Position numbers and translations under genes: made by a program
Assembly (NCBI GenBank): GCA_964445985.1
Contig: CAYUMU010000009.1
Location: 27,954 to 91,953 of the forward strand
Direction: 5' to 3'
Source: an uncultured Pirellulales bacterium
GTDB taxonomy: Bacteria; Planctomycetota; Planctomycetia; Pirellulales; S012-138
DNA: 64,000 bases
Shown: positions 44,014-54,156 of the stretch, in pieces
Numbering within the stretch: the first letter of the stretch is position 1
How the letters are laid out: every line of letters begins with the position of its first letter
The notes under the pieces: generated by a model
Databases searched by the model: none
The model's input: the letters and a program-made list of their open reading frames with translations, nothing else
Told to the model about the DNA's origin: nothing

Positions 44014-44139
44014 ATGAAATCGCATCGCGAATACCTCACATTCAACGTGCCCGCCCGGATGGGTTTCGAGAACATCACCCCCCAGGTGGAAGAAATCGTC
44101 AGCAAAAGCGGCGTCCGCGAAGGCCTGGTGCTGGTGAAC
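44014..44139 (+). pseudogene. yjbQ: 5' fragment (codons 1-42) of a yjbQ/UPF0047 gene disrupted by the element
   Basis: [42 protein letters not shown] aligns to residues 1-42 of the intact copy at 51604..52026. Homology stops exactly at 44139. Confidence 0.85.
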
Positions 44140-45805
44140 CCGACGACGAATGCACCTCACACCGATTTCCGTCGAGGGGGGTGAGCCCGTGAACCTCGAT
44201 TGCCCATCGCTTGGCCCGATGATTCTTCTGGCCGGCAATCGGGAAGACATAAACTCCGCAGGGGCGACTGTCGGGCAGGCTCCCGTCGAACACTCGGTCA
44301 ATTAGCCCCTTCTTGTCTTCGTCCGACATTTCTTCGATGTAATGGCTCGCCAGTCGAATTGTCGCTGCCAGCCTGGTCTTTTTTCGCTTGAGGACTTTTG
44401 TATCTCCGTCCGTCCACTGGGACAGCCAGTTGGCCGTCACGAGGGCCTGTTCCTTAATTGCATCAGCATCGGGAAGGTGGGAGACGGAATCACTCAGCTT
44501 ATCCCGATCATCCAGCAGTTTGGCCTCCCGGGCTTTCAACTCGCCCAGTTTCTGTTCGGCCTGCTCATCACTGATGGCGTCCCGTTCGATCAAGTTGAGG
44601 ATGCGATTCCTCGCTTTCTCGATTTTGCCAATCTCGATACTCACGTCGGCAATTCGCTTCCTGGCCTCTACGACCTTCTTGGAATTGGGTTGAGCCTCGC
44701 GAATGGCTTTTTCAATCGCGATCGGATTGCCGAAGGTCTCAAACAACAACTCCAATACAGTCGCCTCTAGTTGATCTGCCCGAACCCAGGGCCGGGGCTT
44801 TATGCCGCACTCTCGGCAGCGACTGCTGTGAGCGTGACGATAGTAATGGAGTTTGCAGTGGTTTGTTTGGCCAAACATTCCATAGCCGCACTTTCCACAA
44901 AACACTCGGCCCGATAACAAATAGTCGTGTTTGGGTTTGCCATGCAGATAGGTCTTGTTTGCTTGGCAACGCTTCCGAATCGCCTTGATCGTTACCTCAG
45001 GAAGCAATCGAGGGATGATATGAGGCACCACTTCCTCGATATTCAAGTCGCTGATGGTGAAACTCTCCTCCCATTGAGTTCCGCAACGCTGCATCAGCGT
45101 CTTGTGTAAGTTTGTGTGGTTGATGCCATATTCCGGGGCAAGATTGGCCAGCGACTCCCCCTGTAAATAGCGATGGGCACAATCCTCGACCATCGCCTTC
45201 TTTTCGGGAATCACATTCCATTTGCCGGTCTCTTTGTCGAATTGGCGACCGAAGGGCATCTTTCCACTGGTCGGTATGCCCCGTTTGGCTCTCTCGATGC
45301 GATTCAAGATGGACTTCTGCTTTTGGGTATTTGCCTGGAAAGCGTTGATCGTGGAAGCAATCGACAAGAAAAATCTTGCTTGAGGATCGAACAGATCGTA
45401 TTCGGTCGTCAGCACGAAAAATCGAATGCCGTTGTCTCGGAGGATGTCGAGCCCAGTTTCATTCGCGACATTATCGCGGCTCCATCGTGACGGATCGGCC
45501 ACGATAACGGCGTCGAAAGGCTTTCTTGCTTTCCTGGCATCGGCTAACAATGCATTGAGCTGTTCACGCTCCCAACCCGATGTTGCGTGTTCCTGCCCTG
45601 CATACTTCGTTGCGTGTTCCTGCCCTGCATACTTCTTAGTGATCTGTCCTTCAAGAGAAGCGACGGCCTGCCCAATTTGTTTATCCTGAGTGCGAAGCGA
45701 CTCCCCCTGCTTTTCCTGTTTCTCCGTCGAGACTCGAATTAGAGCAGCGAACCGAAGGGGCTTATTGGAGTCTTGGCCATTCAAGCCAGAGTCTTGTTTG
45801 GGCAT
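44099..45805 (-). CDS. Large serine recombinase (integrase)
   Basis: [14 protein letters not shown] catalytic motif, [12 protein letters not shown], recombinase domain, zinc ribbon [15 protein letters not shown], coiled coil. The last ~13 codons read across attL into antisense yjbQ. Confidence 0.9.
44131..44162. repeat. attL: 9-bp direct repeat CTGGTGAAC (44131-44139) plus left terminal inverted repeat CGAATGCACCTCACAC (44147-44162)
   Basis: The same 9-mer occurs at 53851-53859. The IR matches the reverse complement of 53833-53848 at 15/16 positions. Confidence 0.75.
45582..45635. repeat. Perfect 27-nt tandem duplication inside the integrase catalytic domain
   Basis: gttgcgtgttcctgccctgcatacttc x2, giving [18 protein letters not shown] just before the conserved SG..R segment. 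Confidence 0.9.
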
Positions 45806-46019
45806 AGTTTCCTTAACCTATCCCTTGACCTGCGAGGAAGAAATAAAGGGGGCGGCTGACCAATCCGGTCAAGGAGAAGATGGTCCTGCTTAGGAGGCCA
45901 ATCCCGAGCAGTGCCGCCCGAACTCGATCTTAGCGCCGGGGGGGCTTTATGGCACGGGTTGCACCGATTTGAACCCGCCCCACCGGCTCAAGACTCGAAG
46001 TTAAGAGGTTTGCCTGCGA

Positions 46020-46373
46020 TCAGTACATTCGCGGCAATTCCAGAACCTCCTCATCGTGGGGAACGCTTTTGCCGGCCCCTTGATTGCGAATGGGCTCCCG
46101 TTCAAAGTTCATTACGGGGAGCGGCAGGGGCGACTCATCCCCCGAAGCATTCTCGACGAGGGCTTGCGAATCGGGATTGCGAATGGACTCCCGTTCAAAG
46201 TTCATTACGGGGAGCGGCAGGGGCGAGTCATCGCCAGTTTGGTTTGCAGGAGTACGTCTTGTGGCTCCCTGTGCTCCCTGGTAACTGCTTCTGCTCGTGT
46301 TGCGATTGATGCTGCCGCCGTCGTCGGCACCCAGGATGCCGCAATTGTGGACCATGATTAGCTGATGCGTCAT
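46020..46373 (-). CDS. Hypothetical protein with an internal 31-residue repeat
   Basis: GD(D/E)SPLPLPVMNFERE(S/P)IRN occurs twice. Same strand as the flanking element genes. Confidence 0.4.
   Translation of the reverse strand: MTHQLIMVHNCGILGADDGGSINRNTSRSSYQGAQGATRRTPANQTGDDSPLPLPVMNFERESIRNPDSQALVENASGDESPLPLPVMNFEREPIRNQGAGKSVPHDEEVLELPRMY
46082..46232. repeat. Two 58-nt direct repeats (56/58 identical), 93-nt period
   Basis: gattgcgaatgg[g/a]ctcccgttcaaagttcattacggggagcggcaggggcga[c/g]tcatc at 46082-46139 and 46175-46232. Confidence 0.9.
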
Positions 46374-46431
46374 TGGATTGTCCTTAGTTTGAGATTGAAA
46401 AAGTTGGGGTCGCTGTGTTGCGGTGCTACTC

Positions 46432-52702: not shown

Positions 52703-52918
52703 GGGAGTCCTCCGTGAGTTGGTGGGAAAGCGTGGGCCAGTCGGGCGTCGAATTTGGGTGTGGGAATCGGGCGGAAAAGTGGGACGGGAAGGAAAGGAAA
52801 GTAAGGGTGTATATCTCTTAACCCCTGGGAATCGGCCGACTCCCATTTCATCCCGTAAAAACAGGGTTCAAAGCCACATCGACAAATGCTTGCCAGAATT
52901 TGACCCCCCTGCTTCCAT

Positions 52919-53695
52919 TCACGACTGCTCCCATTCCTTCACCCACCGTTTGAACGTCTTTTCCGGCACTCCGACCTCGTTAGCAATCCGTCGCATTCCC
53001 CATCCCATTCTTCTCAGCCGTTCCGCGACAGGACGGACCTGTTGCTGCTTCAGCGACTTGGCGTCGCCTACCAGGTAGGGACCACGCTTGCGGGCTTCTA
53101 ACACCGCGAGTACCCGATCCGCTTGCCATTTCGTCGTTTCGGTCGTCCTGTCTGAAAGCAAGGTTTGGATCAAATGGTGGGGAAGGTCCGGACCATAAAG
53201 TGATACTAGAGGCACGCCGTCAGCCTCGTCCAGGAGTCGGTCAACTTGTTCGATGGTTGGCAACACTAAATAGTTCTTATGCGAGTGATATTTCGGATGT
53301 CTAAGTAGCCGGGTGAAGTTCTCGACGACGATGGGAATGTCGTACAGCTTGGCAAACGCAACACATGCTCGCCATTCTGAGCCCCGCCTGTGACCCTTCG
53401 CAATTTCGTCGAAAACGAAAAGGATTCGGACTCCATAAACTTCGGTTATCCAGTGTCGCATCCAAGCTTCTGCCGCCGGAATGTGGTGTTCTTGGCCCTT
53501 ACTTGAAACCCGAATGTAGACAACGACTCCTCTTCTGCGTTGCTCAGGTGTCATCGTCTTGAAAAACACAGCCCAGTAAAGGACGTACTGCCCGTATCTG
53601 ATTTTGAGGTCGTCGCTGGCCCGCCCGACTCTTCCGCGAGCTGTGGATTCTTTTCCCCTGGACGGGCGGTCTTTTTTGTTCTTCGTATGATTCAT
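52919..53695 (-). CDS. Atypical serine-recombinase-like protein with C-terminal HTH
   Basis: VVVYIRVSSKGQ (Y-x-R-V-S-x-x-x-Q catalytic motif), IVVENFTRLLRH, C-terminal MRRIANEVGVPEKTFKRWVKEW. Trimmed to ATG 53695. Confidence 0.6.
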   Translation of the reverse strand: MNHTKNKKDRPSRGKESTARGRVGRASDDLKIRYGQYVLYWAVFFKTMTPEQRRRGVVVYIRVSSKGQEHHIPAAEAWMRHWITEVYGVRILFVFDEIAKGHRRGSEWRACVAFAKLYDIPIVVENFTRLLRHPKYHSHKNYLVLPTIEQVDRLLDEADGVPLVSLYGPDLPHHLIQTLLSDRTTETTKWQADRVLAVLEARKRGPYLVGDAKSLKQQQVRPVAERLRRMGWGMRRIANEVGVPEKTFKRWVKEWEQS

Positions 53696-53832
53696 GGTAG
53701 TTACTTTCGGGACCCGCGAGCAGACACTGGACACGGCTGCTCGCGGGTTTTTTTATTGGATTGGTCAATCGATTCGAGACATATTCTAACCGGGGCTCGG
53801 ATCGCGGGAACCCTTGCAGACCTCCCCCTTCA

Positions 53833-53859
53833 GTGTGAAGTGCATTCGCTCTGGTGAAC
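53833..53859. repeat. attR: right terminal inverted repeat GTGTGAAGTGCATTCG (53833-53848) plus 9-bp direct repeat CTGGTGAAC (53851-53859)
   Basis: See attL. The host reading frame resumes at 53860. Confidence 0.75.
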
Positions 53860-54156
53860 GCCATGCACATCACGGCCAGCGTGTTCATTAACGACGACGA
53901 ATCAGGGCTGCACGAAGACTACAAGAAGTGGCTGGAGCGACTGGCCCCCTTCGATGCCTCGTCGCACGCCTACGCCCACAACCGCACCGGCGAAGACAAC
54001 GCCGACGCCCACCTGAAACGCCAGGTAATGGGCCGAGAAGTCGTGGTGGCCATCACCGAAGGCAAACTGGACTTTGGCCCCTGGGAGCAAATATTTTATG
54101 GGGAGTTTGACGGGCGAAGGCCGAAGCGGGTGTTGGTGAAAGTGATTGGGGAGTGA
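53860..54156 (+). pseudogene. yjbQ: 3' fragment (codons 43-140 plus stop) of the disrupted host yjbQ
   Basis: [21 protein letters not shown]...VLVKVIGE*, protein-identical to residues 43-140 of the element copy. 42 + 98 codons reconstitute a 140-aa protein in frame. Confidence 0.85.

Follow-up and report, generated by a model that had tools for sequence, protein, structure and literature searches.

A probable serine-integrase element inserted in yjbQ of an uncultured Pirellulales bacterium, with relatives in Planctomycetota and neighbouring phyla

The DNA analyzed here, referred to as the window, is a stretch of 64,000 nucleotides from an uncultured Pirellulales bacterium (contig CAYUMU010000009.1, positions 27,954 to 91,953); all coordinates below are window positions. 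The evidence as a whole is best explained, with high confidence, by an integrative mobile element at 44140-53859 that was inserted into the host gene yjbQ by its own large serine recombinase. The gene is divided as follows, with lengths given in amino acids (aa):

44014-44139, + strand: host yjbQ N-fragment, codons 1-42 (translation; ATG at 44014; 42 aa, MKSHREYL...GLVLVN)
44140-53859, no strand: integrated element, 9,720 bp (boundaries and shift in GC content)
53860-54156, + strand: host yjbQ C-fragment, codons 43-140 plus stop (translation; 98 aa)

Reconstruction of the interrupted gene

Both pieces of yjbQ are located on the same strand and in the same frame, and they complement each other exactly (1-42 and 43-140), in frame and with neither gap nor overlap. 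When joined they form an open reading frame (ORF) of 140 aa, and the rejoined YjbQ/UPF0047 protein has thousands of full-length homologues of 140 aa in a homologue search, with a top identity of 91%. An earlier note on this DNA had described the two pieces as in-frame halves of yjbQ from which deletion of 44140-53859 restores the 140-aa ORF, and translation reproduced this description. The insert has a GC content of 54.6% compared to 60% on either flank. At the left attachment site (attL) the frame of the N-fragment continues antisense into the integrase gene for 14 extra codons and ends at a stop codon at 44182-44184, which gives a truncated product of 56 aa (a 56-aa gene is also predicted here). 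At the right attachment site (attR) no N-terminal coding sequence was found ahead of codon 43. Removal of the insert yields an uninterrupted target gene in the window and likewise in seven other complete elements, including those at the related loci L011, L015, L020, L026 and L027. As both yjbQ halves are undamaged, the insertion would be recent or reversible.

The predicted 32-nt attachment site of the host gene (attB), GGCCTGGTGCTGGTGAACGCCATGCACATCAC, is present without mismatch in 23 metagenome contigs, each time within a yjbQ free of any insert, whose remaining sequence shares no more than 72-81% identity with the window gene. This rules out the alternative raised in the earlier note, according to which the two pieces are independent degenerate genes. 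The exact conservation of attB in genes of such divergence also indicates that the target is an ultra-conserved stretch of DNA. At the protein level, residues N42-V50 of YjbQ are invariant in 104 homologues.

Attachment sites and crossover

The attachment (att) sites that flank the element were predicted as follows:

44112-44163, + strand: attL, consisting of B half-site, crossover AA at 44137-44138 and P' half-site (repeats, symmetry, junction conserved in 19 distinct relatives)
53833-53884, + strand: attR, consisting of P half-site, crossover AA at 53857-53858 and B' half-site (repeats, symmetry)

The crossover dinucleotide AA opens the Asn42 codon. On the + strand, the shared 9-mer CTGGTGAAC is restricted to 44131-44139 and 53851-53859, i.e. 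to the two junctions; on both strands of the window it has three matches versus 0.47 expected, a count reached in none of 100 shuffles. The arms are formed by a 16-nt inverted repeat (44147-44162, + strand, P' arm; 53833-53848, - strand, P arm) with 15 of 16 positions matching, which is the sole such pair in the window (0.09 matches expected by chance). In the rebuilt 50-bp attP of the window, 18 of 26 positions are mirrored about the centre, with a null of 6.5 +/- 2.1 and a maximum of 14. The shared 9-mer, the imperfect terminal inverted repeats and the dyad-symmetric attP of ~50 bp had all been pointed out in the earlier note, and each of them exceeds chance in these tests. The predicted attP joint of the circular form reads ...GTGCATTCGCTCTGGTGAACCCGACGACGAATGC..., and the predicted restored attB joint reads ...GGCCTGGTGCTGGTGAACGCCATGCAC....

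Six of the eight complete elements show a comparable rebuilt attP with 16-18 of 26 positions mirrored about AA (null ~6.3 +/- 2.1). AA are the sole bases common to attL and attR in all eight elements. The symmetry centre of attP coincides with this dinucleotide, the only one shared by all junction pairs. Such sharing fits a predicted crossover of 2 bp as in serine integrases; the 9-bp identity found in the window exceeds what would be needed.

The motif ATGCACYTCAC of the P and P' arms recurs in the host B' arm of the window as ATGCACATCAC, positioned 7 bp nearer to the centre. For the LI integrase, the zinc-ribbon motif is shifted inward in attB relative to attP (Rutherford et al., PMC3783163). 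The inward shift in the window would have the same direction as in the LI integrase model, which is a resemblance and not a test. The P' arms of L016, L017, L022, L026, L027 and L031 harbor ATTTAGTTAC-like sequences ~13-21 bp from the crossover. These are close to TTTAGTATC, the reported zinc-ribbon-domain motif of the Listeria LI/A118 integrase attP.

The integrase

The presumed agent of insertion is encoded directly at attL:

44099-45805, - strand: large serine recombinase (integrase), 568 aa (Pfam, PHROG, AlphaFold, Foldseek)
45582-45635, - strand: perfect 27-bp tandem duplication in the catalytic domain of the integrase (9-aa insertion, in frame)

The Pfam scan detected PF00239 Resolvase with 59.5 bits (cut-off 23.3) and PF13408 Zn_ribbon_recom with 41 bits (cut-off 25.3), but not PF07508. 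The protein matches the PHROG integrase family phrog_95 (E = 2e-50), and its RVS26T serine motif is invariant across 26 integrase homologues. A PDB sequence search with phmmer retrieved the TP901-1 catalytic domain only (E = 0.01), since the integrase is too divergent for this approach. An AlphaFold model built with 26 homologues (predicted local distance difference test, pLDDT, of 77) comprises a catalytic domain, a long alpha-E helix, a recombinase domain (residues 187-285), a zinc ribbon (301-358) and a coiled coil, with helices at 375-442. In Foldseek, this model was aligned over its full length with structures of serine integrases, cryo-electron microscopy structures among them; the matches are 9y66, 9dxd, Bxb1, phiC31 and 4kis (E = 5e-17 to 1e-5) and additionally 9iu2 and 9rah; the Listeria LI integrase is among the serine integrases matched. 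The catalytic domain also matches those of gamma-delta and Sin, and identity to any solved integrase is only 12-15%. Judged from Pfam and the modelled fold, the protein of 568 aa truly belongs to the large serine recombinases, as it shows all of their features that are accessible to in silico tests. The best match in NCBIfam is XisF with 52 bits versus a cut-off of 375, and Ccr is likewise far below its threshold.

Residues 1-555 of the integrase are encoded by the element, whereas residues 556-568 and the stop codon (the last 12.7 codons) are provided by antisense DNA of the host yjbQ. The P' half-site is positioned inside the last codons of the gene; therefore the integrase has no stop codon of its own and its tail changes with the state of integration. 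After circularization the ORF would continue into the P arm, giving a predicted protein of 579 aa compared to 568 aa in the integrated form. In the window and in each of 18 related loci that were inspected, the stop codon is provided by host DNA, 0.7 to 21 codons past the crossover. Thus the integrase gene is adjacent to attL, as had been noted earlier, but it does not merely abut this site: the ORF crosses attL and is terminated by the host.

The 27-bp duplication doubles the family-invariant motif YAGQEHAT. It is missing from 25 homologues, was seen in contigs of three metagenome runs, and corresponds to a low-confidence loop of the AlphaFold model. As the two copies are perfect, the duplication must be very recent.

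A family of elements using one position in yjbQ

About a thousand homologues share 40-56% identity with the integrase, mostly in metagenome-assembled genomes (MAGs) of Planctomycetota. From these, 36 loci encoding integrase homologues were fetched, and eight complete elements, including that of the window, were available. In 23 of the 36 loci (22 identified by tblastn and L007 by a hidden Markov model) a yjbQ N-fragment comprising residues 1 to ~42-46 is located directly past the 3' end of the integrase gene in convergent orientation. Among the 19 distinct junction sequences, every break occurs directly after the Asn42 codon. Besides the window, seven loci contain the C-fragment inside the 10-kb flank; these are complete elements of 7.5-11 kb whose yjbQ halves rejoin into an intact YjbQ. 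Carriers belong to Planctomycetaceae, Pirellulales, Candidatus Anammoximicrobium, Gimesia, Tepidisphaeraceae, Phycisphaerales and Sedimentisphaerales and, outside Planctomycetota, to Nibricoccus (Verrucomicrobiota) and one Thermodesulfobacteriota MAG. Going by these sequences, the elements form a family in Planctomycetota and neighbouring phyla whose integrases are predicted to use one position in yjbQ.

The other 13 loci have no yjbQ beside the integrase gene, and three of them (L014, L021, L036) share a different conserved flank of ~700 nt. This indicates that the clade also has members with other targets. Relatives with a terminase gene are found in the genomes of the cultured Novipirellula and Alienimonas (L030, L025), and in these two loci no yjbQ fragment was seen next to the integrase gene. 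In Candidatus Anammoximicrobium (L003-L006), four independent assemblies of one and the same element all stop at an identical position, ~5.1 kb upstream of the integrase (locus position 1), which suggests a repeat or a population polymorphism.

A full-text literature search did not turn up any publication that connects yjbQ/UPF0047 to a serine recombinase. In Vibrio cholerae, yjbQ has been named as an insertion site of islands, without mention of the integrase type (PMC12082036). The statement of the earlier note that no described element family targets yjbQ is therefore correct for serine integrases within the searchable literature, but not for yjbQ as an island site. Within the same searchable literature, a yjbQ-targeting serine-integrase family is previously undescribed.

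The yjbQ copy of the element

A second yjbQ, which is intact, is located within the insert and had been passed over in the earlier reading:

51604-52026, - strand: intact element yjbQ, 140 aa (translation, Pfam, NCBIfam)

Compared with the host C-fragment (residues 43-140), the encoded protein is identical at 98 of 98 positions, with 28 synonymously different sense codons and a different stop codon. Residues 1-42 share 31 of 42 amino acids with the host N-fragment, a value among the lowest observed when two proteins have the same C-part. Throughout the YjbQ family, conservation is much stronger in the C-part than in the N-part, and this constraint probably accounts for much of the asymmetry. 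Because no database homologue exceeds 93 of 98 in the C-part, the C-part of the element copy may share a closer history with that of the host, either by gene conversion or because the copy is a hybrid whose parts meet close to the att crossover. Inversion by recombination between the 298-bp inverted yjbQ repeats was considered and rejected, as the repeats are 90% identical with exclusively synonymous differences and show no sign of recent exchange.

An intact yjbQ is present in six of the eight complete elements (window, L011, L015, L020, L026 and L027). Among the five other carriers, four have it directly within the attR end, where it forms a tandem with the host C-fragment, and one has it inverted as in the window.

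Two side observations concern further yjbQ arrangements. P0121, a YjbQ protein of 232 aa from an NCBI contig of 991 nt, contains two matched stretches; it seems to combine an intact element copy with the host C-fragment through read-through, in an L011-type tandem arrangement. Downstream of the interrupted gene, a 28-nt copy of the yjbQ 3' end (54126-54153) with 26 of 28 positions matching is found at 54940-54967, at a distance of 814 bp. The two copies bracket a single ORF from 54153 or 54201 to 54905 (~234-250 aa, no Pfam match), and the pair looks like an older small insertion that may also have used yjbQ, at its 3' end.

Other genes of the element

The remaining predicted genes are all encoded on the - strand:

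46020-46373, - strand: 117-aa ORF between packaging module and integrase (two 61-nt repeats)
46432-47088, - strand: 218-aa ORF downstream of the terminase (no family match)
47006-48403, - strand: large-terminase-like protein, 465 aa (PHROG, homology to large terminases, TerL)
48400-48864, - strand: 154-aa ORF directly upstream of the terminase, 4-nt overlap (conserved beside TerL in 10 loci)
49005-49727, - strand: small serine recombinase of the resolvase/invertase type with C-terminal helix-turn-helix, 240 aa (Pfam, PHROG)
50444-50746, - strand: 100-aa ORF, its start overlapped by 19 bp by the 270-aa gene
50728-51540, - strand: P-loop NTPase-like cargo protein, 270 aa (family scans)
52919-53734, - strand: divergent serine-recombinase-like protein with C-terminal helix-turn-helix, 271 aa (RVSS serine motif; likely start ATG near 53695)

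The 465-aa protein matches phrog_2 (E=4e-27), is 23-36% identical to annotated phage TerL and is kept at 47-60% identity in 11 related loci. Its 154-aa neighbour might be a small terminase, as suggested by its position alone. The 218-aa ORF occupies the slot of a conserved ORF of ~160 aa in other family members. In the 117-aa ORF, the 61-nt repeats (46082-46142 and 46175-46235) are 95% identical and 93 bp apart, and encode the repeated peptide GD(D/E)SPLPLPVMNFERE(S/P)IRN. The 270-aa and 100-aa ORFs represent variable cargo that is not conserved in the relatives.

Together with the integrase, the 240-aa and 271-aa proteins make up three serine-recombinase paralogues encoded by the element. These two additional recombinase-like genes had gone unmentioned in the earlier note, as had the terminase gene and the duplication in the integrase. 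The 240-aa protein scores 110 bits with Pfam Resolvase and matches the DNA invertase family phrog_125 (E=4e-47); a small serine recombinase is located upstream of the integrase in most relatives. The 271-aa type is found at the attR-proximal end of seven of the eight complete elements. Serine integrases catalyze unidirectional recombination of attP with attB, and excision requires a directionality factor; the 271-aa protein is a possible factor of this kind, but only a candidate. Between its likely start and attR, 53711-53756 contains a 12-bp GC-rich hairpin followed by seven T's (+ strand). This structure would stop rightward transcription leaving the element into the yjbQ C-fragment. PDB sequence searches with the terminase and the 271-aa protein gave no significant match. 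Neither an Rfam match (61-nt repeats included) nor a PADLOC defence system was found in the element, and a promoter/terminator scan was uninformative.

Proposed mechanism and lifestyle

According to the proposed mechanism, of which the first step is well supported, the large serine recombinase (44099-45805, - strand) would insert the element by attP x attB recombination at the AA of the Asn42 codon. This would leave attL (~44112-44163), attR (~53833-53884) and two undamaged yjbQ halves. The target would be a stretch so conserved that the 32-nt attB stays identical among diverged yjbQ genes. Disruption of the host gene would presumably be offset by the complete yjbQ of the element (51604-52026), and the tail of the integrase would switch between 568 aa in the integrated form and a predicted 579 aa in the excised form. 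The small recombinase, the 154-aa ORF and the large terminase may serve to have the excised element packaged in helper capsids. The window copy is possibly crippled by its recent in-frame duplication of 9 aa.

In 11 loci a fixed module is formed by the small recombinase, the 154-aa ORF, the terminase, one or two small ORFs and the integrase, while the middle of the elements contains cargo that is unrelated among relatives. No portal or capsid gene was detected by Pfam or PHROG in any complete element, which covers the window element and sampled ORFs of its relatives. The window TerL shares 41% identity with that encoded on a 30-kb phage contig from IMG/VR (L067), where genes for portal, head morphogenesis, major head protein and adaptor come after TerL. 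Two family elements harbor a DUF2213-like gene that has a homologue in the head module of this phage. Because a compact module with a terminase, but without portal or capsid genes, is conserved, a phage-satellite-like lifestyle with packaging of the excised element in helper phage capsids is plausible, and we rate it slightly short of even confidence. The small size of the elements agrees with such a lifestyle, as does the combination of an integrase and a packaging function in the absence of capsid, portal and tail genes.

A more comprehensive reading can be offered tentatively and with considerable doubt. It regards these elements as phylum-spanning and satellite-like, self-packaging by means of their own large terminase and equipped with a large, a small and a third serine recombinase. 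They would bring a spare copy of the gene that they destroy, with a C-part perhaps kept host-like by gene conversion. As attP would be situated in the 3' end of the integrase gene, integration would rewrite the integrase C-terminus and part the integrase from the downstream recombinase-like gene, which might act as a sensor of the integrated or excised state.

Observations that weigh against the proposed element and lifestyle

Several observations do not support mobility, compensation or packaging as proposed above. Contigs of four metagenome runs were inspected over 42500-55500. In three samples, assembled contigs show the integrated form over attL and attR, and contigs of separate runs cross attL (X1, X2) and attR (X1, X4) without mismatch. 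Neither an excised circle nor an empty attB of this organism was present in these contigs, which is weak evidence, as contigs drop rare variants. Loose contig ends at 53850 and 53860 proved to be yjbQ alleles of other organisms. In IMG/VR viral contigs there was no match to the attP 32-mer, and the integrase family had no match in IMG/VR either; both results disfavour frequent encapsidation. The 27-bp duplication in the catalytic domain may inactivate the integrase and thereby freeze the window copy in place. The earlier note had suggested a search for an uninterrupted yjbQ at the syntenic locus, but no such locus of the same species was found: the closest YjbQ homologues are 91% identical with only faintly syntenic flanks, and the genes with an exact attB come from other organisms only. 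The sole trace of synteny is a small His-rich ORF upstream of the intact yjbQ in L060 and L063, which resembles a His-rich low-complexity protein encoded just upstream of yjbQ in the window (15-nt periodic repeat at 43395-43454, ORFs 43228-43681).

Further points of this kind concern individual components. The rebuilt attP of L009 and L027 (two of the eight) lacks gapless symmetry. Two of the eight complete elements have no yjbQ copy, which indicates that compensation is not obligatory. Around the crossover, the element yjbQ copies still agree with the host attB in 24-38 of 50 positions, with no clear pattern; copies of such resemblance might be expected to be targets themselves. The 154-aa ORF has no family match and no detectable similarity to small terminases in Pfam or PHROG.

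Alternative explanations

Some of these observations would also be expected from a decayed and immobile prophage remnant, which was inserted by a serine integrase and retained the terminase of a full phage. This holds for a terminase-like gene without portal or capsid genes, the duplication in an invariant integrase motif, the lack of an excised form in the contigs of four runs and the absence from IMG/VR. We consider such a remnant unlikely. The compact order of small recombinase, 154-aa ORF, TerL and integrase recurs in 11 loci from different families and phyla at 47-60% TerL identity, and the element size is always 7.5-11 kb, which makes independent decay improbable. In addition, none of the core ORFs is damaged, nor is either yjbQ half or the element yjbQ, and the duplication is perfect and thus very recent.

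A domesticated intervening element, comparable to skin/sigK, SPbeta/spsM or fdxN/XisF, would rebuild yjbQ by programmed excision in a particular cell type or condition. The perfect preservation of both gene halves and the state-dependent integrase tail are compatible with this explanation, and XisF is the best NCBIfam match, far below its threshold (52 vs 375 bits). Excision is not needed for YjbQ function, however, when the element encodes its own intact yjbQ. The variable cargo in the middle, a GC content below that of the host and the distribution over several phyla, with junction arms that differ among elements, fit horizontal mobility and not a developmental switch. This makes programmed excision very improbable.

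The explanation that no insertion took place, with the pieces as independent degenerate paralogue fragments or the contig as an assembly chimera, is hardly credible and effectively already refuted: a third intact yjbQ and the 28-nt yjbQ 3' remnant (54940-54967) nearby make the region repeat-rich and therefore possibly prone to mis-assembly, but the pieces are exactly complementary and in frame, 19 other distinct junctions have the identical break point, contigs of separate runs cross both att sites without mismatch, and the joined 32-mer exists in nature.

Significance

An element inserted by its own serine integrase thus remains the preferred explanation. To our knowledge, very few mobile elements have been described for Planctomycetota, and the present analysis provides a whole element family with base-pair-resolved ends for this poorly studied phylum. 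Att sites are predicted for eight integrase/site pairs. As the 32-nt attB is identical across divergent bacteria, the integrases could serve as broad-host landing-pad tools in organisms that are hard to engineer. A full spare target gene represents a different route to cost-free integration than in-frame repair of a gene end, and a host whose split halves have decayed could come to rely on the element. The position of an att site in the coding end of the integrase gene and the trio of serine recombinases provide testable leads on directionality or state-sensing.

Comparison with known systems

Serine-integrase prophages inside coding genes include phiC31, Bxb1 in groEL1, Listeria A118 in comK, and TP901-1. 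The window element resembles these in its large serine recombinase with catalytic, recombinase, zinc-ribbon and coiled-coil domains, and in the predicted att sites with a dyad-symmetric attP of ~50 bp, a non-palindromic 2-bp crossover and a target within an ORF. It differs from them by its size of 9.7 kb without virion genes, by yjbQ as target and by the whole spare target gene. In addition, the attP of the window overlaps the last codons of the integrase, and the stop codon is contributed by flanking DNA.

Integrators that repair their target are represented by SXT/R391 in the 5' end of prfC and by phage 21/e14 in icd, all of which use tyrosine integrases. In dusA-specific islands, an integrase clade is likewise tied to one gene and the target is repaired (PMC4482086). 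The yjbQ elements share with these integrators the use of one conserved position in one conserved housekeeping-type gene of many taxa and, presumably, the neutralised cost of disruption. As in the case of phage 21 and icd, the version carried by the element differs from that of the host mostly by synonymous changes. However, the prfC, dusA and icd integrators have tyrosine integrases and a replacement end fused in frame at the junction, whereas no such fusion is present at attL or attR of yjbQ. The gene is not restored at either junction, and the elements bring along a whole gene apart from it, which can have either orientation.

With satellites such as Staphylococcus aureus pathogenicity islands and phage-inducible chromosomal islands (SaPI/PICI), P4, and elements resembling virion-encapsidated integrative mobile elements (VEIME), the family shares a size of 7.5-11 kb, an integrase plus packaging gene(s), the absence of capsid, portal and tail genes, and variable cargo. 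The homologue of a helper-type head-module gene (DUF2213-like) in two family members is a further similarity. Known satellites usually contain a small terminase or redirecting factors instead of a large terminase, and mostly tyrosine integrases. The present element, in contrast, has three serine-recombinase paralogues, and its family is absent from IMG/VR.

Serine recombinases acting at a single chromosomal gene are also found in staphylococcal cassette chromosome mec (SCCmec; CcrA/CcrB), skin/SpoIVCA and fdxN/XisF, and the CcrA/CcrB pair of SCCmec resembles the yjbQ elements in that one element harbors more than one serine recombinase gene. Unlike SCCmec, which has two large enzymes, the yjbQ elements encode a single large serine recombinase accompanied by one or two small ones. 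The NCBIfam scores of the window integrase are far below the XisF and Ccr cut-offs, and nothing points to programmed excision. In summary, the proposed mechanism is a serine-integrase insertion of a known type, as for phiC31, Bxb1 or A118, and the strategy differs from that of target-repairing integrators by the whole spare gene that accompanies the element.

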